64,000 nt of DNA, taken from positions 5,026 to 69,025 of IMG/VR virus record IMGVR_UViG_2974791491_000001; one strand, written 5' to 3'. Made by a program: the position numbers and the translations under genes. Source of the stretch: a virus. Shown here piece by piece: positions 4,634 through 64,000 of the stretch. Below the pieces are notes generated by a model. It saw nothing but the letters and a program-made list of their open reading frames with translations. It was not told the origin of the DNA and did no database searches. The stretch's first letter is position 1; each line of letters starts with the position of its first letter.

Positions 4634-5593
4634 ATGACTTTTAACGCAGTCAAGGTTGAGAAGCTTGCCAGTTACGGCTTGGAGCTGTTGCAGCGCCAGA
4701 TCGTTCTCCCGTCGCGGATTACCATTAAGAGTGGTGCCGAGTTCCAGGGTGCGCTTGGCGATGCCATCACTATCAAGATCGGTGCCCGCACCAAGGCTCG
4801 TCGGGCCAAGATCCGTCCCGCTACCGAAGCGGAACGTCAGATCCAGTTCTCGGATCTGAGTGAGCAGAAGACTCACGTCACTCTGACCGACCGTATCTAC
4901 TCGGCTGTTGGCCTTGAGGATGAAAAGGCGAAGTTGGACGTCGAGGACGTCTTCTCGCAGGTTGTTGCCCCTCAGGTCCGCGCTATTGCGGTCGACTACG
5001 AGAACCTGTTGGCGGAAGAGATTGCGGGTGCCCCGTACAAGCACGTTGTGCCTGTCGACCCGGATCACCCCTACGAGGCTTTCGTTGAGGCTAACCGTCT
5101 CTTGGGTCTGTCGTTCGTTCCGGACGAGAACCGCACCCTGTTGGTTGGTGCGAACTTCGAGGCTGCTCTTCGGAAGAGCCCGCAGTTCATTGCCGCGACC
5201 AGCGCTGGTGACGCTATCGCTTCGAGCCTGTTGGCGCGTGCGACCCTCGGCACCATCAACGGCTACACCGTTGTTAAGAGCTACGCTCTGCCGGCCAATG
5301 AGGCTTACATCATCCACAAGAGTGCGTTCAGCTCTGCGTGGTTGGCTCCTGTCGTCCCTGACGGCGCTAGCTGGGGTAAGTCGATTGGCTTGGGTGGCGA
5401 GACCGGCATTTCGCTGACCTGGTTGAAGGATTACGACTTCATGGTTGGCCGCGACCGTTCGCTCCTGCACTTCTACACCGGCGTCAACACCACGATTGAC
5501 GAGCCGGACGTGAATGCGGACAACGAGATTGTTGCTGCTGGTGGCTTCCTGCGTGCGGTGAAGCTGGTTCTGCCGGGTGACACGAGCGCCTGA
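4634..5593 (+). CDS. major capsid protein
   Basis: 319 aa ORF after scaffold, strong RBS context, typical size and position for an HK97-like capsid subunit. Confidence 0.65.
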   Translation: MTFNAVKVEKLASYGLELLQRQIVLPSRITIKSGAEFQGALGDAITIKIGARTKARRAKIRPATEAERQIQFSDLSEQKTHVTLTDRIYSAVGLEDEKAKLDVEDVFSQVVAPQVRAIAVDYENLLAEEIAGAPYKHVVPVDPDHPYEAFVEANRLLGLSFVPDENRTLLVGANFEAALRKSPQFIAATSAGDAIASSLLARATLGTINGYTVVKSYALPANEAYIIHKSAFSSAWLAPVVPDGASWGKSIGLGGETGISLTWLKDYDFMVGRDRSLLHFYTGVNTTIDEPDVNADNEIVAAGGFLRAVKLVLPGDTSA

Positions 5594-6792: not shown

Positions 6793-7280
6793 TGGCTATC
6801 GAGTTTCCGGACTGGTACAAGGGTGGTTTTCCTGACGCTGAGGCGGCAGTTAAGGCGATCCTTGATCCGTTCCTTAACCAGCTTAGCCCGATTCCGAGTG
6901 TGTGTGCTTGGCTGCCGGATGACTATGACAAGTATTTGCCTGTCGTGGCTATTCAGCGTGTCGGCGGAAAGATTTCGGATGACGGTTTGACCGACAACCC
7001 GCTGGTGTGGGTGTGGGTCATTTCTGAGCGGCGTCACGATTCGTGGCGGCTCATTGAATACATACGTCAGGTGATGAGGACGTATTGCAGGGGCGATCGG
7101 GTCGTCAATTCGGCCGGCGACGTGTTCCTGATTGAAAGCGTAAGCGAGGTCCAAGGGCCTGAGCTGACGCAAACCAACGTGCCAGACGAGCGTGTCATTC
7201 CCGTGGCGTTCGCACTTGAGACGAAGAAGTTTGCTTCGACTCCTGATTATGCACGCATTCGCGGGGAACTTTTTGATTGA
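6792..7280 (+). CDS. tail-completion-like protein
   Basis: Synteny only. Confidence 0.3.
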   Translation: MAIEFPDWYKGGFPDAEAAVKAILDPFLNQLSPIPSVCAWLPDDYDKYLPVVAIQRVGGKISDDGLTDNPLVWVWVISERRHDSWRLIEYIRQVMRTYCRGDRVVNSAGDVFLIESVSEVQGPELTQTNVPDERVIPVAFALETKKFASTPDYARIRGELFD

Positions 7281-7951
7281 GAGGGCCTGTTATGGCTGAT
7301 GGCATTAAGTCTTTGAAGGATAAGAATGACGGCTTGGTCGTCATGGCTCGTGATGCGGCTGTCATTGCGACTCCTTACGGTTTGGGAACTATCCCGACCA
7401 AGTTGACCGGTCCTGGTGGCAATCTGATTTCGCTGCCGTCCAACTGGGACACCTTTGGTGAGTTGGACCAGAAGACCGGTATCAAGATCACTCCGGACGT
7501 TAAGACTGCGGACGTCGAGGGTTATGGCTCGATGGGTCCGCGACGGACTGTCAAGACCGGCGAGTCGGTGACTCTGAACTTCGCTGCTCAGGAGTCGAAG
7601 AACCTGGTTCTGTCGGCGTTCTGGGATCTGGACCTGTCGGACACTGTTGCGGATAGCAATGGTGAGTGGCAGGCGAAGAAGAGCTACGCCTCGGATATGA
7701 AGCTGTGGAGCCTCATCCTGTTGGGTGCGGACCAGAACGAGTACGGAGATGTTTACCCGTACTGGATCTTCCCGAAGGTCATGGTTACCAAGACTGACGC
7801 TGTGTCCTTGGGCACTGACGCTGCTCTGGTTTACCCGTTCACCTTCCAGGCGTTCGAGGATGAGAACTTTGGCGGGTTCATGGCTATTGGTGCGGCTGGT
7901 CCGGGCCAGGCTGGCGTGAACGCTAAGGCCGGGTTCGCTGCGGGTTCCTGA
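7277..7951 (+). CDS. major tail protein
   Basis: 224 aa ORF just upstream of the chaperone pair and tape measure. Followed by a strong intrinsic terminator, consistent with a highly expressed structural gene. Confidence 0.6.
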   Translation: MRGPVMADGIKSLKDKNDGLVVMARDAAVIATPYGLGTIPTKLTGPGGNLISLPSNWDTFGELDQKTGIKITPDVKTADVEGYGSMGPRRTVKTGESVTLNFAAQESKNLVLSAFWDLDLSDTVADSNGEWQAKKSYASDMKLWSLILLGADQNEYGDVYPYWIFPKVMVTKTDAVSLGTDAALVYPFTFQAFEDENFGGFMAIGAAGPGQAGVNAKAGFAAGS

Positions 7952-23174: not shown

Positions 23175-23894
23175 ATGCGCAAAAAGACTCTCCCTTACAC
23201 TGCTTCGATCATCATGCAGGACACCTATTACTGGTGTGGTCCTGCCACGGTCCAGAATATCGCCTCGTCTCGCAAGTTTATTGCCGAACCGGCGTTGGCT
23301 AAGGAGATGGGGACGACCACGAATGGTACGAACCATATTGGGTTGCTCGCTAAGGCCCTGAATAAGCATTTGGGTGTCTTGTTTGCCACGGTGCTTATTG
23401 GTGGTGCTGATGCCACGGTTAAGCAGCGGGACAAGTTGTGGGCGGATCTCAAGGCGTCTGTTGATGGCGGTTATGGCGTTGCTATGAACTGGGTTGCTCC
23501 TCCGAATGGATACCCTAAGGGTGTTCTGGGGTCGCGTAATCCGTCTTATGGTGGCGGCACTGTCTATCACTATGTGGCGGCTATGGGGTATGCCGAGGAG
23601 AACGGTAAGCGTTATGTGCTGATCGTGGATTCGGGGTTCTCGCCGTACAGCTATTGGGTGACGCTCGAACAGTGCGCGACGCTGATCGCGGGCAAGGGCT
23701 ACGCCTATGCGGTGGTGCCTGCTCGTGACGAGCTTGAGGCTAAGCCGGTTACCGATTTCGTTAAGGCGTTCTTGGGGCCGTTGGCTTCGGACGTCAAGGA
23801 CATTCGGGGCCAGTTGGTTACTGCTTGGAAGCAGCTCGGGGGCCGCACGGTCGTGGACGGGCTGGCTGATACGCGGAGGTTGCTCGGTGGTTGA
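23175..23894 (+). CDS. endolysin component: cysteine-peptidase-like domain plus C-terminal repeat module
   Basis: YYWCGPATVQ papain/C39-like Cys motif; C-terminal module DFVKAFLGPLASDVKDIRGQL..DGLADTR repeated in the next gene. Confidence 0.5.
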   Translation: MRKKTLPYTASIIMQDTYYWCGPATVQNIASSRKFIAEPALAKEMGTTTNGTNHIGLLAKALNKHLGVLFATVLIGGADATVKQRDKLWADLKASVDGGYGVAMNWVAPPNGYPKGVLGSRNPSYGGGTVYHYVAAMGYAEENGKRYVLIVDSGFSPYSYWVTLEQCATLIAGKGYAYAVVPARDELEAKPVTDFVKAFLGPLASDVKDIRGQLVTAWKQLGGRTVVDGLADTRRLLGG

Positions 23895-24702
23895 GTCTTC
23901 GATCACCCGGACGCAGATATCGCCGAACAAGCACTACGGGGGCCGGGACGTCGACTGGGTTGTGATCCACACCCAGGAGGGCAATGGGCGGGCGCGGGAT
24001 ATTATCCCGTTCCTGTGCAACCCGGCGTCCGAGGTCTCCTATAACGCGGTTGTTGACGATGTGGAGTCGGTGCTTGTTGTGCCGTGGGACGCCAATCCGT
24101 GGGCGGCGATGAACGCCAACACGAGGGGCGACCACCTGTTGTCGGCCGGCTCTTTCGCTAAGTGGTCTAAGGCTAAGTGGCTTGAGATTGATGCGCGGGA
24201 CGGCAAGAACGAGAACGCGCAGATGGATCGGCTGGCGTTGTTGACGGCGTGGCGGTGCAAGGTTCGGGGTATTCCCCCGGTGTATGTGGGCGGCAAGGGC
24301 CGTCCTTCTAAGCCCGGTATTTGCGGGCATGTCGACTTTGGGGCTTGGGGCGGTGGTCATACCGATCCTGGGCCGAACTTTCCCTGGATCGAGTTTATCT
24401 CCCGTGTTCAGGGCTTCTACTACGGTGAGGATTTTGATATGGCCGCTAAGGATGAGGTTATCGACTTCATTAAGGGCTTCGTTGGGCCGATCGTGTCCGA
24501 CGTTAAGGACATTCGTCAGCAGCTCACGGGTGGCCGTGACTATGGCGAGTATCCGGGCTGGAAGCAGCTCGGGCAGAACGCTAAGGGCGAGAACTTCACG
24601 ATTGTTGATTCGTTGGCGGATACCCGTCAGCGGGTGATCGGTTTGGTGGATCTTGTTAAGGGTTTGGAGGCGCGGGTCTCCAAGTTGGAAGGTGGTAAGT
24701 GA
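23887..24702 (+). CDS. endolysin component: N-acetylmuramoyl-L-alanine amidase (PGRP/amidase_2-like) plus the same C-terminal module
   Basis: GTG 23887 with GGAGG 7 nt upstream. VIHTQEGNG..GICGHVDFGAWGGGHTDPGPNFPW amidase_2-like motifs. C-terminal DFIKGFVGPIVSDVKDIRQQL..DSLADTR. Confidence 0.55.
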   Translation: MVESSITRTQISPNKHYGGRDVDWVVIHTQEGNGRARDIIPFLCNPASEVSYNAVVDDVESVLVVPWDANPWAAMNANTRGDHLLSAGSFAKWSKAKWLEIDARDGKNENAQMDRLALLTAWRCKVRGIPPVYVGGKGRPSKPGICGHVDFGAWGGGHTDPGPNFPWIEFISRVQGFYYGEDFDMAAKDEVIDFIKGFVGPIVSDVKDIRQQLTGGRDYGEYPGWKQLGQNAKGENFTIVDSLADTRQRVIGLVDLVKGLEARVSKLEGGK

Positions 24703-24932
24703 TGGCTACTCAGGTTGAGCATCCTCGTCGGGCTGTTGTTCGGACGGTGTTTCAGGTTGTGATTGCCTTGGCGGCTGCGCTGCCCCTCATTGTTGTGGCG
24801 TCGGGTGTTCCGGCGACTGCTGCTGGTGTGGGTGTGGCGTTGGCTGTTGCGGCTGGTGTTACTCGGGTGATGGCGCTGCCCGTGGTCAATGATCTGATTG
24901 ACCAGTATGTGCCTTGGTTGCGCACTGAGTGA
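24699..24932 (+). CDS. holin
   Basis: 77 aa, two predicted transmembrane segments, directly after the endolysin genes with ATGA overlap. Confidence 0.5.
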   Translation: MMATQVEHPRRAVVRTVFQVVIALAAALPLIVVASGVPATAAGVGVALAVAAGVTRVMALPVVNDLIDQYVPWLRTE

Positions 24933-25303
24933 TTGAGCAAGTTGATCTGACGAGTGGTGGATGGTCCTCGATCATTCTGGTTGTGGGGTTTTTCTTCGCG
25001 GCTTTGGCTTCGGGGTTCATCCACTACTTGTACAAGAAGACGTCTCGTCTTCAAGCTGACTACGAGTCCTTGCGCCTGGACATGGAGAAGCTTAAGGAAG
25101 AGTCGCGGAAGCAGGAAGAGCGGCACCGGCAGGACCGGGAGAGCGACTACCGCATGATTAACCGGTTGCAGAACTTCATTGTGGACTTGCAGGTGTATGC
25201 GGCCCGCTTGCGGGGCATGCTGGCTGAGAAGGGCCAGGCGTCTCCTGCGCCTCCCGTGTTGGATGATGTTGACCTTGACCCTAAGGAACTGGTTACCCCT
25301 TAA
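24929..25303 (+). CDS. lysis-associated membrane/coiled-coil protein
   Basis: N-terminal transmembrane segment then charged coiled-coil region; GTGA overlap with holin. Confidence 0.35.
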   Translation: MIEQVDLTSGGWSSIILVVGFFFAALASGFIHYLYKKTSRLQADYESLRLDMEKLKEESRKQEERHRQDRESDYRMINRLQNFIVDLQVYAARLRGMLAEKGQASPAPPVLDDVDLDPKELVTP

Positions 25304-59783: not shown

Positions 59784-60046
59784 GGTATCGCAAGAAGCCT
59801 GTCGAGGTTGACGCGCAACAGTGGAATGGTCGCAACTATCTGACGGTCGACAATTTCACCGAGGGCCAGTTCCTTAAAGCCAACAATGACGACCCCGATA
59901 AGGGGCCGACCGCCCATGTCTACGACAGGCTGCACGCGAGTTGGGTTGGGGTTATGACCGGCGACTTCATTATCCGGGGAATCCAAGGCGAATACTACCC
60001 GTGTAACGCGGACGTCTTCGAGGAGACCTACGAGGTGGTTCCGTGA
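59780..60046 (+). CDS. hypothetical protein (TTG start overlapping upstream stop)
   Basis: Track ORF 59663 would overlap the membrane protein gene; in-frame TTGA junction. Confidence 0.3.
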   Translation: MRYRKKPVEVDAQQWNGRNYLTVDNFTEGQFLKANNDDPDKGPTAHVYDRLHASWVGVMTGDFIIRGIQGEYYPCNADVFEETYEVVP

Positions 60047-60306
60047 TCTGCACACTCAACGTTGTTGATGACTCCGAGCTAACGCCAGACGGTAACGGCA
60101 GGTACTCGACAGTTGTGCCCATCGACGGCAGGCTAGCCGCAGAACTGTTTGAGTTCCCGGACGCCCCCCTGATGGCTTTCGAGATGGTCGGAAACCTACG
60201 GCACGTGTACATGCTGGATACCTTCATGGTGTTCAAAGATGAGGCCCACGTCGCTCAGATGCGGGTAACGTTTAAGCGGTTCCTTAGCGGGGAGGTTTCC
60301 CCATGA
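60043..60306 (+). CDS. hypothetical protein
   Basis: 87 aa. Confidence 0.3.
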   Translation: MICTLNVVDDSELTPDGNGRYSTVVPIDGRLAAELFEFPDAPLMAFEMVGNLRHVYMLDTFMVFKDEAHVAQMRVTFKRFLSGEVSP

Positions 60307-61025
60307 GGATCATTCTGTGTCGCGGCATCGGCGAACCTGCCAGCTCCCCCATGCTGCGCACCGTCACCACCGAGATATTGAAGCTCGGTTATGTGCCCGA
60401 GGTTGTCAACCTGCCGTGGAAGGCCCAATACGGGCCGGTCCCCGATCCGCTGGGCGATGACTTCCACGATGCGCTGGCCCACGGTAAGGAGCTGCTGCGC
60501 CGGGAGCTGGACCTGGGGCCGGCTGTGGTCCTCGGCTACTCCGGGGGCGCTCAGCTAGCAGGCGACTTCGTCGTTGACATCGGCCACCACAACTTGCGCG
60601 CGCTTGGCCTGGTCGCAGATCCGGGACAACCTAAGGGCGCTACCGGCAACTACAACCGTTGGGGCATCACCGGGCCGCGTATCCCGTTCGGTACGCCTAC
60701 CGCGTGGATCGCAGACCCCAATGACGGCATCCCCTTGTGTCCCGCTAACTCCCCGCTTAGGACGTTGGCAGATCAGTCGGAGAAGTTCAGCCTGATTGAT
60801 CCTGTCGCTTGGGGGTTTGAACTGTGGCTCAAGCTTGTGCGCGGCGACTTCCAGAAGGTTGATGCCTTCAAGCAGTTCACCGAGGGTGAATGGTGGGAAA
60901 CTGCCGACTTGCTGCACGGCTACGTTTTCGGCCGGGACCACACGAGCTATGGCACCCGTATTGATCCGCGTACCGGGAACACGTATTCGCGGGATCTGGC
61001 TGAGTGGGTGGTGAAGTTCCTGTGA
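60303..61025 (+). CDS. cutinase-fold serine esterase (LysB-like)
   Basis: ..AVVLGYSGGAQLAGDF.. G-Y-S-x-G nucleophile elbow; size and Cys content like cutinase/LysB. Confidence 0.45.
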   Translation: MRIILCRGIGEPASSPMLRTVTTEILKLGYVPEVVNLPWKAQYGPVPDPLGDDFHDALAHGKELLRRELDLGPAVVLGYSGGAQLAGDFVVDIGHHNLRALGLVADPGQPKGATGNYNRWGITGPRIPFGTPTAWIADPNDGIPLCPANSPLRTLADQSEKFSLIDPVAWGFELWLKLVRGDFQKVDAFKQFTEGEWWETADLLHGYVFGRDHTSYGTRIDPRTGNTYSRDLAEWVVKFL

Positions 61026-61166
61026 CGTTCTCTATTCGCCTGTTTGGGCGGGAGCTGCTGTCGTTCTCGTTTAGCGAGCCCGAGGCTGCTAGCGAGGAGG
61101 TCTTGGACCTTAGCTCTGGCACCATGAACTTCGGGTTTGCTTCGCCTATCGAGTTTGAGGATAAGC

Positions 61167-61652
61167 GTGCCAAAACATTCTAAGCCGGTAGAAGTTGACG
61201 ATCGTGGGCTGCCTTATCTGGATCACACGACTATCGAGATATTTGGTGACCGGCAGTCCGGTAAGACAGAGGCTCTGTGCAGGTACGCATTCTTTGACCT
61301 GGTACTTGAGCGGCGGCGTGTGCTGTATGCCGGTTGGACTCACGCGATGGTGCAGGAACGTATTCGGGCTATCTGGGATTACATTCAGTTGTCACCTGAT
61401 GCGGGCGACTGGAAGATGTATAACAGCTCATCGCGGCGCGAAATTTGGAACACTAAGACTGACGCGGTCCTGTTCTTCACGTCCTACAATTCGCCAGGCC
61501 GGCCGATTTGCGTAGACACCTTCCTGATGGATGACGTCAACCTGCTCATCGAGAACAAGGGCCGACAGAAGTATGAGGACATGCTCATTTCTGCCCGCTT
61601 CACGTTGTTGAAGTCAGCTAATCCGAAGTTGGTGGTGACCTCATGCGGCTGA
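61167..61652 (+). CDS. small P-loop NTPase-like protein
   Basis: Walker A IFGDRQSGKTEAL and Walker B-like FLMDDV; GTG start with GAGG RBS. Confidence 0.35.
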   Translation: MPKHSKPVEVDDRGLPYLDHTTIEIFGDRQSGKTEALCRYAFFDLVLERRRVLYAGWTHAMVQERIRAIWDYIQLSPDAGDWKMYNSSSRREIWNTKTDAVLFFTSYNSPGRPICVDTFLMDDVNLLIENKGRQKYEDMLISARFTLLKSANPKLVVTSCG

Positions 61653-62257
61653 TTGTTGGTACTTACCGTAAACGCGCCTACATCGAGCGCGCGCTTAGCT
61701 CCATCGACAAGCATCTTAAGGGCATCACGGATATTGCTTTCGTCGATGACTCCGGGGATGCGGAGCATTCCGAATGGTTGCGTCAGTACGGGCATGTGGT
61801 CGAGACCGGTAAGCGGGGCTACAACGCGGCCATGAACGCCGTGTGTGAGACCGCTCAGGGCCAAGAGTTCATGTTCTGGGAAGAGGACTTCACCATGCTT
61901 GAGCCGGTGAACCTCACCCACATGTCCGAGATCCTGTTTCACCGCCCCTACTTGGCTCAGATCGCGCTACTTCGGGGGCCTTGGTTCGACGTCGAGCACG
62001 AGAACGGCGGGCTACTTGAGGCCCTAGTGGCTAACGGGCACAAGGTCGAGCTGGTCGATGGTGTGCATGAGCAGACCGCAACGTTTACCTGCAACCCGTC
62101 TGTGTGGCGCGGGAGCGTGTCGGCAGCGGGTTGGCCGGCTGGCCGCTGGTCGGAGGAAAGGAAACGCGATGAGCTGCTAAGGCAGGGTTATCGGTTCGGG
62201 TTTATGGAAGGGGTGAAGGTTGACCACGACGGAGAACGTACCGGCCACGACTACTGA
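61643..62257 (+). CDS. glycosyltransferase (GT-A fold, family 2-like)
   Basis: ..LIVGTYRKRAYIERALSSI..IAFVDDSGD.. GT2 N-terminal signature. Confidence 0.5.
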   Translation: MRLIVGTYRKRAYIERALSSIDKHLKGITDIAFVDDSGDAEHSEWLRQYGHVVETGKRGYNAAMNAVCETAQGQEFMFWEEDFTMLEPVNLTHMSEILFHRPYLAQIALLRGPWFDVEHENGGLLEALVANGHKVELVDGVHEQTATFTCNPSVWRGSVSAAGWPAGRWSEERKRDELLRQGYRFGFMEGVKVDHDGERTGHDY

Positions 62258-62549
62258 GCTTGCAGAGCTTAAGGCCGGCCTAGAGGACGGGCACGAGGTT
62301 TGGTCCGCTGGGGACGAGATTGAGCTTGAATCCGGGAACGTCTACAAGTGCGTTAGCCACAAGCAGGTCGATAGTCGCCGCTGGGTTAGCGTCCATTACG
62401 TCATCATGGAATCGCCTACAGGCCGTTTCTATCGCTATGTCGAGGAACAACCCCTGACCGAATACCAGGAAGCGAGCGGTATCGACGTAAGCACGCTTCG
62501 AGAGGTATTCGCTAAGGAGAAAACGATCAGGGTGTGGGTGGAGCGCTGA
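62220..62549 (+). CDS. hypothetical protein
   Basis: 109 aa; overlaps previous gene by 38 nt. Confidence 0.3.
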   Translation: MTTTENVPATTTELAELKAGLEDGHEVWSAGDEIELESGNVYKCVSHKQVDSRRWVSVHYVIMESPTGRFYRYVEEQPLTEYQEASGIDVSTLREVFAKEKTIRVWVER

Positions 62550-63178
62550 TGGAGGTTTGCATCCCTTGGCGGGCAACCCCCGAACGCAAACCGGCATTCG
62601 CGCGGGTAACCGACTTCTGGCTACACCACGACTTCGACCTAATAACCTGCGACAGTGACCGACGGTCCAAATCGTTCTCGATCACCCAAGCCCGAAACAA
62701 GGCTGTAAACGCCTCCAAGGGTGACGTGGTGGTACTTGCTGACGCGGACACCATTGTCGACATTGCGGCCGTCAGGGAGGCAATCAGCACGGTTAAACCG
62801 GGAGAAGTGATCTACCCGTTCGCTACTTACCGGCATATCCCCGGCGATACCGTCTCAGACAGCGACTTGCATGCTGCGCCGGTCGAGCAGGAATACCGCA
62901 ACAGCGTTGGCGGCATCATGGTCACCCTAAAGGACACCTACTGGGAGCTTGGGGGCATGGATGAACGATTCGAGCCTAGGTGGGGCTACGAGGATTCGGC
63001 ATTCAAGCTAGCCGCCGAAACGTTGGGCACTGTCCGACGCCTCCCCGGCACTATCTACTCGTTCAACCATCCGGCCGACCGTGACCTTAGCTACGACAAT
63101 CCAAACCGTCACCGGTTCGACCTGTACCGGGCATGCGCGGGTAAGCCGAATCTGATGCGAGAGTTGGTCAAGCGTTGA
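62534..63178 (+). CDS. glycosyltransferase (GT-A, DxD)
   Basis: ..DVVVLADADTIVD.. DxD motif, 214 aa. Confidence 0.45.
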   Translation: MGGALMEVCIPWRATPERKPAFARVTDFWLHHDFDLITCDSDRRSKSFSITQARNKAVNASKGDVVVLADADTIVDIAAVREAISTVKPGEVIYPFATYRHIPGDTVSDSDLHAAPVEQEYRNSVGGIMVTLKDTYWELGGMDERFEPRWGYEDSAFKLAAETLGTVRRLPGTIYSFNHPADRDLSYDNPNRHRFDLYRACAGKPNLMRELVKR

Positions 63179-63876
63179 CGCTAAGCATTTGCGTACTTGC
63201 GGTGCCAAGTAGGTTGCAGCAGGCTCAAGCCTTGAGCGATCAGCTTGAATCTCACCTACTGATTGATAGCACGTGCCAGGCGTCGACAGCGCATGCCTTA
63301 GCTTGGGAGTGCGCGGCAGAGTATATGGAGGCTGACGATTGGGTTGGCGTAGTTGAGGATGACGCGATACTTGCCGATGGGGCGACCAGGGTCGACATAG
63401 AGGCGATGCTTAACGCCTCCCCTACGGACATTGTGTCCGGCTACCTAGGTCGAGCTAGGCCGGCCGATGCCCAACCCCTCATCGACCAGGCCCTTAAGCA
63501 CGACCCGCATTACCTCGTTACTTACCGGCTACTTCACCACGTGGCAGTGTTCACGCGGGCTAAGCATGCTGCCGATATCGCCAGCTACCTGCGGAAGTAC
63601 TCCAAGTTCCCGTGCGACGAGGCGCTAGGGCTATGGGCTCAATCCGCGGGCCTACCGATCGCCTACAGCGTGCCGTCACAGTTCGACCACATGGACTCCG
63701 AGCCCGTGATCTTAGGCCGCACCGTAACCGGTAACCCCCAAGAGCCACGGATCGCATGGGTGTTTGGAGACCGGGACGACTGGGACCAGGAACGGACACA
63801 GTTGCTCGACCAGCCAACCGTGAACCGGTACGGAAAACGATTCCCTGCCGCGCGGCGTCCAGCACGGCCCGCATAA
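63175..63876 (+). CDS. glycosyltransferase-like protein (DxD)
   Basis: ..WVGVVEDDAILADG.. DxD-like motif, 233 aa. Confidence 0.4.
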   Translation: MTLSICVLAVPSRLQQAQALSDQLESHLLIDSTCQASTAHALAWECAAEYMEADDWVGVVEDDAILADGATRVDIEAMLNASPTDIVSGYLGRARPADAQPLIDQALKHDPHYLVTYRLLHHVAVFTRAKHAADIASYLRKYSKFPCDEALGLWAQSAGLPIAYSVPSQFDHMDSEPVILGRTVTGNPQEPRIAWVFGDRDDWDQERTQLLDQPTVNRYGKRFPAARRPARPA

Positions 63877-64000
63877 CAGCCAAGCTACGGGTAGCGAACA
63901 CGCCGGCCGGGGCATCCACGGGTGCCGGTTCGTACCAGTGAGCGAAATGCTCCCGCTCCGCGCGCTCCCAGTGCTCGGCTACGGCCAGCTCCTCGGCACG

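Follow-up and report, generated by a model that had tools for sequence, protein, structure and literature searches.

Three glycosyltransferase genes of Gordonia phage Kudefre form a putative virion-protein glycosylation cassette

The window analysed here, a stretch of 64,000 nucleotides, is 100% identical to the genome of Gordonia phage Kudefre (OK040786.1); window coordinates equal those of that record minus 5025. The interval 61167-63876 runs exactly from the start of Kudefre gene 122 to the stop of gene 126. Kudefre is a soil phage with Gordonia terrae as its host. It encodes an integrase and an immunity repressor and is temperate. The transferase genes lie well inside the rightward array of lytic genes, at a distance from the region for immunity and integration. 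The genes of the interval and its immediate surroundings, together with two structural genes discussed below, are listed in Table 1.

Table 1. Features of the Kudefre glycosyltransferase region and candidate acceptor proteins (window coordinates).
Product	Description	Position	Strand	Evidence
gp16	major capsid protein; possible second acceptor	4634..5593	+	variable short tail ...KLVLPGDTSA after conserved core
gp21	major tail (tube) protein; predicted acceptor	7277..7951	+	C-terminal ...GFAAGS; Gly-Ser codons 7943-7948
gp120	lysin B-like serine esterase, 240 aa; cassette context only	60303..61025	+	GYSGG 78-82; phrog_102
gp121	53-aa hypothetical protein; filler in the gap between lysin B and P-loop genes	61022..61183	+	
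gp122	mini P-loop protein, 161 aa, GTG start	61167..61652	+	Walker A GDRQSGKT 27-34, Walker B VDTFLMDD 116-123
gp123	glycosyltransferase 1, 204 aa, GT2-like GT-A	61643..62257	+	Pfam, PHROG
gp124	109 aa; variable slot between transferases 1 and 2	62220..62549	+	PHROGs of unknown function only
gp125	glycosyltransferase 2, 209 aa, GT2 / beta-4-galactosyltransferase-like	62549..63178	+	Pfam, PHROG, blastp
gp126	glycosyltransferase 3, 233 aa, GT25-like GT-A	63175..63876	+	phrog_854, Che8/Corndog homology, AlphaFold2/Foldseek

Upstream in this array, at 3-6 kb, are genes for ThyX, ribonucleotide reductase, NrdH and MazG; a small gene followed by an HNH endonuclease gene lies downstream of genes 125 and 126. 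Overlaps of 1-38 bp join the genes across the lysin B, P-loop and transferase stretch, with one of 4 bp between genes 125 and 126, and the order lysin B, P-loop protein, transferases is kept in all 6 of the Deeyouvirinae examined. A preliminary description of this DNA presented the region as a right-end module with three consecutive GT-A genes. Three GT-A-type transferases are present, but the 109-residue gp124 separates the first from the second, and the module stands at the right end of the window only, as the genome runs 7.7 kb further. The second transferase had been started at a GTG codon at 62534; GenBank places the start at an ATG at 62549, which the alignment of homologs favours. No transmembrane segment was predicted in any of the cassette-region proteins, the maximum Kyte-Doolittle average over 19 residues being 1.26, below the transmembrane threshold.

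The first transferase, gp123, scores 26.1 bits against Pfam Glycos_transf_2 (cut-off 23.3) and 5e-36 against phrog_3047. Its motifs VDDSGD (residues 34-39) and WEEDF (79-83) contain the DxD-type residues D35-D36 and E80-E81-D82, which are conserved in the cluster. The protein is 71-95% identical across Deeyouvirinae and has more than 100 homolog clusters, nearly all of 204-207 aa. By blastp it has no counterpart in Che8 or Corndog; homologs occur in cluster C1 phages, in a Nocardia prophage and in an eCIS locus of a Mycolicibacterium. We predict that gp123 extends a glycan.

The second transferase, gp125, scores 29.4 bits against Pfam Glyco_transf_7C, where the cut-off is 23, and 5e-49 against phrog_1721, and the GT-A assignment of both gp123 and gp125 follows from these above-cut-off Pfam families, as predicted from sequence. 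In blastp it is 28% identical to Che8 gp109 (1.6e-16) and 31% identical to Corndog gp37 (3.7e-20). Its DxD motif, D65-A-D67, corresponds in the alignment to E-S-D or E-A-D in the proteins of Che8, Corndog and Marvin, and gp125 shares with beta-4-galactosyltransferases and GT2 enzymes of the GT-A type the Glyco_transf_7C motif W-G-x-E-D, at residues 145-149.

The third transferase, gp126, gave no match in searches of Pfam or of PDB sequences. It does match phrog_854 (1.6e-46), Che8 gp110 (35% identity, 2e-28 in blastp) and Corndog gp38 (32% identity, 1e-18), with which it shares the motifs EDDA, VS-YLG, H-V, AY-PS-DH-D and R-A-W. The DxD-type residues E61-D62-D63 are invariant in 18 homologs, as are H121, D148 and H172. 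An AlphaFold2 model (pLDDT 90.4) has a GT-A fold, a single Rossmann-like alpha/beta/alpha domain, and Foldseek matched it in the PDB to the GT-A enzymes Mimivirus R655, GnT-I, POMGnT1, the transferase domain of LH3, and KfiA. In BFVD the top match was gp87 of the cluster F1 phage Ardmore (TM 0.82, rmsd 2.0); next came other proteins of phages and uncharacterised proteins of viruses, and after them many giant-virus proteins of the GT25 family. Weak Pfam GT25 matches were found in 7 of the 18 homologs. Like the CAZy GT25 enzymes, which include LPS beta-1,4-galactosyltransferases and collagen galactosyltransferases, gp126 combines a GT-A fold with an acidic E/D-D-D site, but its sequence similarity to them is marginal and its predicted acceptor is a protein serine, whereas GT25 acceptors are lipid-linked or collagen hydroxylysine. 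One annotation source labels gp126-like proteins 'glucosyltransferase'. We predict that gp126 is the initiating, acceptor-specific enzyme.

Conservation is uneven along the region. The transferases gp123 and gp125 are 67-96% identical across two genera, and gp121, gp122 and gp124 are replaced or fall to about 35%, a pattern that we take as a sign of selection and count in favour of virion glycosylation. No homolog of gp124 was detectable at the same position in Octobien14, Neville or Rabbitrun, and in Octobien14 the transferases flanking that slot are 95% identical to those of Kudefre. The gene is also missing from the Nocardia prophage trio, and gp124 is probably not a functional part of the cassette. 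No family match was found for gp121. Octobien14 has a counterpart of 68% identity, and Neville and Rabbitrun have none.

A small protein with Walker A and Walker B motifs had been noted beside the transferases, and gp122 does carry both. Its inclusion in the module fares less well: none of the cassettes in Che8, Corndog, Marvin, cluster C1 and the Nocardia prophage includes the P-loop protein, which appears to belong to a terminase-ATPase-like family with HNH neighbours. In sequence gp122 resembles a stand-alone terminase-ATPase-like mini protein, its own profile scores being weak (16 bits against Pfam Terminase_6N, below the 22-bit cut-off, and E = 0.011 against phrog_3167). Orthologs from Neville, Octobien14 and Rabbitrun match terminase-like mini-protein profiles at 1e-5 to 1e-10, and orthologs and remote relatives match phrog_3167, phrog_6910, phrog_7579 and Terminase_6N. 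The AlphaFold model of gp122 has a pLDDT of 34. Relatives of gp122 adjoin HNH genes in Denise, Bipper and Neville, including in phages whose examined regions of 4-7 kb carry no annotated transferase; in Neville an HNH gene stands between the P-loop gene and the transferases. We conclude that gp122 is probably next to the cassette and not part of it.

The G-Y-S-G-G esterase reported upstream was confirmed in gp120, where G78, S80 and G82 of the elbow G78-Y-S80-G-G82 are invariant in five homologs and weak alpha/beta-hydrolase matches centre on the elbow. The link to lysin B is made by the match to phrog_102 'endolysin' (8e-31) and by community annotation, the family being annotated as lysin B in 386 Gordonia phage records; judged from match coordinates, some of these genes appear directly after the tail genes, the usual site of the lysis cassette. 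In Kudefre, gp120 lies about 35 kb from the lysis cassette (lysin A and holin; 23175-25303), which holds no lysin B, so that gp120 is the only lysin B candidate of this phage. Displacement of lysin B into the right arm has been described for most Gordonia phages (Pope et al. 2017, PMC5559632). The earlier proposal that the esterase serves a different purpose is at odds with these three observations, and gp120 is predicted to be a mycolyl-arabinogalactan esterase that acts in lysis, independently of the glycosyltransferase cassette. Its elbow lies near the same position as in D29 gp12 (Ser80, against Ser82 in D29), and beside mycobacteriophage LysB proteins (D29 gp12, Ms6 LysB) it is of similar size and lacks a signal peptide. 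Beyond the elbow, however, similarity to D29 LysB (gp12) is not significant, either pairwise (BLASTP E = 0.59) or by profile (hhalign, 1.4% probability); the elbow alone aligns, and the triad Asp and His do not. A search of gp120 against the PDB returned no matches.

Candidate acceptors were sought among the structural proteins. In the mycobacteriophage system the glycan is reportedly attached at the C terminus, going by an abstract and secondary accounts. In Che8, Corndog and Marvin, GS or DS closes both the capsid and the tail subunit, six proteins in all, and the ending of the unrelated capsid proteins is always GS. In Kudefre a GS ending is rare, being found in 2 of the 125 annotated proteins that were tabulated. 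For one of them, gp21, the terminal Gly-Ser is invariant in 6 Deeyouvirinae and the two preceding residues vary. The tail proteins of Kudefre and Marvin are homologous and have a common ...GF..GS ending; in Mollymur, a relative without the transferases, the homologous tail protein ends in ...GFDAAP (the two endings recorded for this phage being AAP and VFA). These C-termini point to gp21 as the most likely acceptor. The weaker case is that of the capsid protein gp16, a possible second acceptor. Its tail is GDTSA in Kudefre and likewise in Syleon and Sephiroth, but AYSS in Octobien14 and DPS in both Neville and Rabbitrun; a serine is always within the last two residues.

We consider it probable, with some reserve, that genes 123, 125 and 126 constitute a virion-protein O-glycosylation cassette of the kind for which Che8 and Corndog provide experimental evidence. 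This is the best reading because gp125 and gp126 are homologous to the enzymes of those phages and stand in the same order, and because the trio or the pair occurs elsewhere among genes for particles. The trio of the Nocardia prophage directly precedes HNH, terminase, portal and capsid genes, and the pair gp123 and gp125 lies inside a Mycolicibacterium eCIS locus, which encodes a contractile injection system, a tail-like particle free of DNA with a sheath that ends in ...SSS. The observed basis comprises the predicted fold of gp126, the family assignments, the Che8 and Corndog homology, synteny and the acceptor-like C-termini. For target, order of action and donor sugar we infer the following scheme. 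During lytic growth three soluble cytoplasmic GT-A enzymes would act in turn: gp126, through its E-D-D metal and nucleotide-sugar site, would transfer a first hexose from a host UDP-sugar to the C-terminal serine of exposed structural subunits, most likely the terminal Gly-Ser of gp21 and possibly also the serine-containing tail of gp16, and gp125 and gp123 would then lengthen the glycan. The product is expected to be unmethylated, because no sugar methyltransferase is present. Several observations count against virion glycosylation: the cassette is in the non-structural arm, as it is in Che8; the capsid protein ends in ...TSA and not GS; the genes checked in cluster C1 phage Norm, which has the same trio, show no GS ending; and Kudefre lacks the gp108-type transferase/methyltransferase that completes the cassettes of Che8 and Corndog, with gp123, of another GT2-like family, in its place. 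Blunted antibody recognition, the benefit suggested in the preliminary description, would be a speculative one for a phage from soil whose host is no pathogen.

The acceptor could also be neither the major capsid nor the tail tube protein but, for instance, a minor tail or receptor-binding protein, a host protein or a small molecule, the Gly-Ser of gp21 then being an inherited trait; we regard this as a minor but real possibility. Homology of the Kudefre and Marvin tail proteins means that the shared ending could be ancestral, but Marvin too bears a glycosylation cassette, the unrelated capsids of Che8, Corndog and Marvin all have GS at the end, the terminal residues are fixed among variable neighbours, and the serine is lost in transferase-less Mollymur. 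Serine also ends gp14 (...LKPAS) and gp28 (...ANASS) in the Kudefre structural region, and cluster C1 phages have the same trio, with no GS ending among the 28 larger genes checked in the 55-100 kb structural region of Norm; a terminal Gly-Ser thus does not hold as a rule for all acceptors. It is quite unlikely that the P-loop protein works as a fourth component of the module, such as an ATPase that activates sugars or acts as a chaperone, and that the esterase has envelope lipids as its substrate in a process unrelated to lysis. The conserved gene order and the overlaps, which suggest co-translation, would fit such a module. Its P-loop gene, however, is absent from every other cassette examined, diverges far more than the transferases (33-40% identity within the cluster, against 67-96%), appears to be of a terminase-ATPase-like family found beside HNH genes without an annotated transferase nearby, and is cut off from the transferases by an HNH gene in Neville; gp120, for its part, is the sole lysin B candidate, of a type whose displacement is the norm.

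Modification of Gordonia envelope glycoconjugates (arabinogalactan, lipoglycans or glycolipids) in the manner of serotype conversion, masking receptors for superinfection exclusion or against loss of progeny on debris, seems unlikely. The temperate character of Kudefre, the mycolyl-esterase gene two genes upstream and the remote resemblance of gp123, gp125 and gp126 to transferases of cell-wall and LPS type (weak NCBIfam matches to GT2, GT25 and dolichyl-phosphate hexose transferase) speak for it. Gtr-type conversion systems, however, depend on membrane proteins, and all three transferases are soluble; for a Gtr-type set of flippase, bactoprenol transferase and serotype-specific transferase, no transmembrane segment was found in the proteins analysed. 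The genes moreover belong to the lytic array, distant from the immunity and integration region, and elsewhere the pair is found among the structural genes of the eCIS and the trio immediately ahead of genes for packaging and head proteins. Glycosylation of phage DNA bases against restriction, as in the T-even phages, with precursors supplied by the nucleotide-metabolism genes 3-6 kb upstream, has been suggested in print for a phage of cluster F and would suit the name 'glucosyltransferase'; here we hold it to be very improbable. T4 DNA glucosyltransferases are GT-B enzymes, but the fold here is GT-A and GT25-like. No hydroxymethylase is annotated at positions 1-50,000 and 60,000-76,731 of the Kudefre record, no DNA-base kinase was recognised, and the P-loop protein appears terminase-like, not kinase-like. 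Particles of the eCIS, whose locus holds the gp123 and gp125 pair, contain no DNA. Against both envelope and DNA targets, the direct, named homologs are capsid glycosyltransferases according to PMC12363180.

Putative virion-protein glycosylation places Kudefre alongside known systems. The virion glycosylation genes of the cluster F1 phage Che8 are 108-110 (Freeman et al. 2023, Cell Host Microbe, as cited in PMC11256854, PMC12363180 and PMC13445384); PMC12363180, a secondary source, describes Che8 gp110 and Corndog gp38 as two essential capsid glycosyltransferases and identifies glycosylated proteins in Che8, Corndog and Myrna. The likeness to mycobacteriophage capsid and tail glycosylation drawn in the preliminary description is borne out, in that gp125 and gp126 are homologous to Che8 gp109 and gp110 and to Corndog gp37 and gp38, adjacent and in the same order. 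In Che8 as in Kudefre the pair stands at the 3' end of a rightward non-structural array, and is followed by a small gene and an HNH endonuclease gene, and a C-terminal serine is seen on structural subunits, in Kudefre on the tail protein. The placement had been thought unusual, but cassettes in the non-structural arm are usual in the clusters that bear them (Che8, Marvin, cluster C1). Kudefre differs from Che8 in host genus, in a cassette that is not at the physical genome end, in its capsid ending (...TSA rather than GS), and in lacking a homolog of gp108, a fusion of GT2 and methyltransferase, in place of which it has the unrelated GT2-like gp123.

Corndog (cluster O, genes 35-38) and Marvin (cluster S, genes 79-83) each have a methyltransferase and three transferases. 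Marvin gp81 and gp83 are homologous to gp125 and gp126 and keep their order, and the GS or DS endings of the capsid and tail subunits in both phages are like that of the Kudefre tail protein. Kudefre, unlike these phages, lacks a methyltransferase as well as any homolog of Corndog gp36 or Marvin gp80: in tblastn of Che8 gp108, Corndog gp35 and gp36 and Marvin gp79 and gp80 against the whole Kudefre genome, the best E value was 0.017. The Corndog cassette, in a further difference, lies among head genes. We found no experimental data on the C1 and Nocardia type of cassette in the accessible literature. It is nevertheless the closest cassette type: all three transferases occur in the same order in cluster C1 (Bixzunavirus, for example Norm genes 240-245) at 40-44% identity and in the Nocardia prophage at 37-66%, although C1 phages are myoviruses and carry a fourth transferase and a PnuC-like gene within the cassette. 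The putative Kudefre cassette, already annotated, belongs to a known kind of system and is not something new.

From 60000 to 64000 the window matches, at 100% identity, Gordonia phage Kudefre (OK040786.1 / NC_060136.1), a 76,731-bp member of the Deeyouvirinae whose host is Gordonia terrae 3612; window coordinates are record coordinates minus 5025. The interval 61167-63876 corresponds to genes 122-126, which already bear the GenBank labels AAA-ATPase, glycosyltransferase, hypothetical protein, glycosyltransferase and glycosyltransferase, with gene 120 labelled lysin B. No paper naming Kudefre or its relatives was found in the literature. The preliminary description had put these genes at the right end, which is true of the window alone: the genome runs another 7.7 kb, through gene 127, an HNH endonuclease (gene 128) and then a leftward-transcribed block. 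It had also described three consecutive GT-A genes and a small Walker protein. These genes are real; they are not consecutive, however, because the 109-aa gp124 parts the first transferase (gp123) from the second (gp125), and the start of the latter is likelier at 62549 than at the proposed 62534. The genes all abut or overlap (overlaps of 4, 17, 10, 38, 1 and 4 bp). A scan of 55-64 kb detected no promoter and terminators not above chance, and no operon boundaries could be drawn. The terminase genes of mycobacteriophage Che8 and of a Nocardia prophage follow directly on the transferases and HNH gene, whereas in Kudefre the small terminase gene lies roughly 11 kb from the HNH gene, beyond an interval made up almost entirely of leftward genes. 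A tyrosine integrase and an AAA-ATPase are encoded within this interval, which also spans the physical ends of the genome.

That all three genes encode glycosyltransferases is borne out by several lines of evidence. gp123 matches Pfam Glycos_transf_2 with 26.1 bits (curated cut-off 23.3) and gp125 matches Glyco_transf_7C with 29.4 bits (cut-off 23); gp126, the third transferase, has no Pfam match. For all three proteins there are PHROG transferase matches (1e-36 to 1e-49) and acidic DxD-type motifs, that of gp126 (E61-D62-D63) being invariant in 18 homologs. An AlphaFold2 model of gp126, with 18 homologs in the alignment, has a pLDDT of 90.4, and Foldseek placed it beside the GT-A proteins GnT-I, POMGnT1, the LH3 transferase domain, KfiA and Mimivirus R655. 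The viral model closest to it is gp87 of mycobacteriophage Ardmore (TM 0.82, rmsd 2.0 A); next come proteins of other phages along with uncharacterised viral ones, and after these numerous giant-virus members of the GT25 family. The gp123 family is large and nearly constant in length. Nothing significant came from single-sequence searches of the PDB with gp123, gp125, gp126 and gp120 or from profile searches with the families of gp126 and gp120; NCBIfam gave sub-threshold matches only and PADLOC none. At the C-terminus gp126 is extended by a basic stretch of about 25 aa (...LLDQPTVNRYGKRF...). Most of the closer gp126 homologs, which stem chiefly from Gordonia phages and metagenomes, share this stretch; it is absent from Che8, Corndog and Marvin.

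Glycosylation of phage virions has been demonstrated only recently, in mycobacteriophages. Freeman et al. 2023 reportedly describe O-linked glycans that capsid and tail tube subunits bear at the C terminus, and are said to mention putative glycosyltransferases encoded by some Gordonia and Streptomyces phages. Homologs of gp125 and gp126 occur in the same adjacent order in Che8 (gp109/gp110; 28% and 35% identity) and Corndog (gp37/gp38; 31% and 32%), and the Che8 pair is followed, as in Kudefre, by a small gene and an HNH endonuclease. Marvin (cluster S) has a pair of this type together with a methyltransferase and another transferase. According to a structural pangenome study (PMC12363180), glycosylated proteins are identified in Che8, Corndog and Myrna, and Che8 gp110 and Corndog gp38 are named as the two essential capsid-glycosylation glycosyltransferases; other papers restate that the Che8 capsid and tail tube are glycosylated. 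gp123 has no counterpart in Che8 or Corndog, and Kudefre has no homolog of Che8 gp108, Corndog gp35-36 or Marvin gp79-80, the sugar methyltransferase included. The full Kudefre trio is found in the same order, at 40-44% identity, in cluster C1 myophages (Norm genes 242, 243 and 245), and contiguously in the Nocardia prophage, where HNH, terminase, portal and capsid genes follow directly. Since the trio recurs in these genomes and the additional Che8, Corndog and Marvin components are missing, the comparison indicates at least two flavours of the cassette, Kudefre having that of C1 and the Deeyouvirinae. Between their gp125-like and gp126-like genes, the C1 phages carry a fourth transferase gene and a gene for a PnuC-like nicotinamide riboside transporter.

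The order lysin B, P-loop protein, transferases 1-2-3 and HNH is kept in all Deeyouvirinae examined, with variable insertions between. Identity differs markedly from gene to gene (see table), a contrast which argues that transferases 1 and 2 are under strong purifying selection and that their neighbours are exchangeable. Between Kudefre and Octobien14 there is sharp local mosaicism, with lysin B and transferases 1 and 2 at 95-96% and the P-loop protein at 33%. The N-terminus of the latter is conserved (MxxHSKPV), its first 14 residues being the same in Syleon. Divergence is much faster in transferase 3 than in the other two (67% versus 95% in Octobien14). In Octobien14 an unrelated gene takes the place of gp124; this part of the gene array, from the P-loop gene to gp124, also has an additional 259-aa gene in Rabbitrun and an additional HNH gene in Neville.

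Features of the Kudefre cassette and of related loci. Locations without a prefix are window coordinates; L-numbers denote fetched regions. Identities are to the Kudefre protein, for Octobien14 / Neville / Rabbitrun.
Feature	Location	Strand	Identity	Remarks
P-loop protein (gp122)			33 / 40 / 35%	
Transferase 1 (gp123)			95 / 71 / 74%	
gp124	62220-62549			no homolog detectable at its position in Octobien14, Neville or Rabbitrun
Transferase 2 (gp125)			96 / 68 / 67%	
Transferase 3 (gp126)	63175-63876		67 / 38 / 40%	
Capsid protein tail	5573-5590			
Kudefre HNH gene	L001:9248-9580			beyond window
Kudefre, further part of the interval between HNH and small terminase genes	L002:142-4943			beyond window
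Denise P-loop/HNH neighbourhood	L027:3965-4692			3' end of rightward array
Bipper P-loop/HNH neighbourhood	L026:3992-6507			3' end of rightward array
Neville P-loop/HNH neighbourhood	L006:5001-5914			3' end of rightward array
Norm genes 240-245	L021:2499-5849			
Mollymur lysin B-like ORF	L019:27403-28098			NC_070948.1 record 77403-78098
Mycolicibacterium eCIS transferases	L029:7358-9238			homologs of gp123 and gp125 plus another GT2
Mycolicibacterium eCIS sheath	L029:3889-5547	minus		C-terminus ...AGQSSS

Two neighbours had been drawn into the module and do not appear to belong to it. The esterase gp120, with G-Y-S-G-G at residues 78-82, had been suggested to serve a different purpose from lysis. 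It is, though, the only lysin B candidate in Kudefre, since the lysis cassette has a pair of lysin A genes along with holin and membrane protein genes and contains no lysin B, and most Gordonia phages have lysin B displaced into the right arm (Pope et al. 2017, PMC5559632). Its family occurs in 386 Gordonia phage records, almost throughout annotated as lysin B; judged by hit coordinates, some of the genes apparently lie right after the tail genes, the usual site of the lysis cassette, and others far from it. The nucleophile elbow is conserved, Ser80 falling almost at the position of Ser82 in D29 LysB, and beyond the elbow the two proteins show no significant similarity. The simplest reading is that gp120 is the ordinary lysis esterase of the phage. 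A lysin B-like ORF 37% identical to gp120 was also located in phage Mollymur, within the last 17 kb of a RefSeq record whose last listed feature ends at 73,549 of 90,669 bp.

The P-loop protein, gp122, is encoded at window positions 61167-61652 and carries Walker A and B motifs of canonical form; its close homologs are confined to the Deeyouvirinae. A full HMMER scan of 1.84 billion representatives returned 33 relatives, mostly stand-alone proteins of 117-140 aa. The relatives scanned against profiles, like the Neville, Octobien14 and Rabbitrun orthologs, match phrog_3167 and phrog_6910 (function unassigned) as well as ATPase profiles of the terminase large subunit (phrog_7579, phrog_2, phrog_9 and Pfam Terminase_6N). 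A relative lies directly 5' of the terminal HNH endonuclease in Denise and five genes 5' of it in Bipper, with no annotated transferase in the 4-7 kb regions examined in these two phages, and the Neville P-loop gene is parted from the first transferase by an HNH gene. The P-loop gene is absent from every other glycosylation cassette examined. We conclude that gp122 is a neighbour and not a component of the cassette; conceivably, the role of its family is tied to DNA cutting or packaging by HNH and terminase. A role as a sugar or DNA-base kinase was rejected, all profile matches being to terminase ATPase domains. 

The C-termini of the virion subunits were compared as candidate acceptors. In Che8 (...NKTGS, ...YSDGS), Corndog (...PLVGS, ...IKGDS) and Marvin (...LPQGS, ...GFGGS), all three cassette-bearing mycobacteriophages, the last two residues of capsid and tail subunits are Gly-Ser or Asp-Ser. 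In Kudefre, gp21, the tail tube protein, ends in ...GFAAGS; its terminal Gly-Ser is invariant in 6 Deeyouvirinae although the two residues before it vary (AAGS, GNGS, AEGS), and among 125 annotated Kudefre proteins that were tabulated just 2 have GS at the end. Mollymur, which has a homologous tail protein and no transferase by annotation or tblastn, shows the termini ...GFDAAP and ...PRVFA. For the capsid protein (gp16) the case as an acceptor is weaker than for the tail protein: after a conserved core it ends in GDTSA in Kudefre, Syleon and Sephiroth, AYSS in Octobien14 and DPS in Neville and Rabbitrun. The identity classes of transferase 3 (82-89%, 67% and 38-40%) coincide with these three capsid-tail groups. 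This would be consistent with an initiating enzyme specific for its acceptor, yet it amounts to no more than a lead, as there are just three groups and they track phylogeny as well. A universal rule that a C-terminal Gly-Ser marks an acceptor was rejected on the evidence of the C1 phage Norm, which has the same trio; 28 larger genes of its structural region (55-100 kb) were checked, and not one ends in GS.

What the transferases modify can be judged in part from another context. On chromosomes of the Mycolicibacterium aubagnense type, homologs of gp123 (62%) and gp125 (58%) and another GT2 lie within a locus for an extracellular contractile injection system (eCIS), and a second such region has the same arrangement. 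The locus contains an AAA ATPase, Pvc16 (Pvc16_N), a T4 gp19-like tube protein, a sheath protein and eCIS_core, and adjoins dnaK-grpE-dnaJ. Particles of this kind contain no DNA. The presence of the homologs there argues against glycosylation of DNA, which was rejected as the main explanation, and for modification of particle structural proteins. A Gtr-type system, in which the envelope would be converted, was likewise set aside, since no membrane segment is predicted in the Kudefre proteins of the cassette region. A virion-protein glycosylation cassette is the best-supported prediction for the Kudefre transferases, and we regard it as probably correct; in its favour are synteny, the homology to named enzymes, the fold, selection, termini that resemble acceptors and the occurrence in particle-associated contexts. 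This part of the preliminary description is supported, through the homology of gp125 and gp126 to the Che8 and Corndog enzymes, without its P-loop and esterase components.

More tentatively, and with more doubt than confidence, gp123 and gp125, perhaps with gp126, might form a general particle-coat glycosylation system of the Mycobacteriales that reads a C-terminal serine tag. Its users would be Deeyouvirinae siphophages, C1 myophages, Nocardia and Rhodococcus prophages and the Mycolicibacterium eCIS, whose sheath ends in ...SSS. For Kudefre this would cast the invariant Gly-Ser at the end of the tail tube protein as acceptor, and gp126 as an acceptor-specific initiator co-evolving with the variable capsid tail. 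The Mycolicibacterium eCIS may itself be glycosylated; the papers searched contain no report of such a system in mycobacteria, and the transferases inside this locus are maybe a more original lead than the Kudefre cassette. Virion glycosylation alters antibody recognition and so matters for phage therapy. Antibodies are irrelevant in soil, which raises the question of what a glycan coat is used for there; rather than evading antibodies, it might keep particles from adhering to cell debris or protect them against host surface or defence factors.

The gain from this analysis is a sharper prediction: the terminal Gly-Ser of gp21 would probably serve as acceptor and gp126 as initiating enzyme, with the P-loop protein and lysin B as bystanders. 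The genes were already annotated and a system of this kind has been published, of which the Kudefre cassette is a variant flavour. If virion glycosylation were shown in Gordonia phages, it would extend to another host genus and to a cassette related to, but distinct from, that of the mycobacteriophages, with no methyltransferase and a different third transferase.
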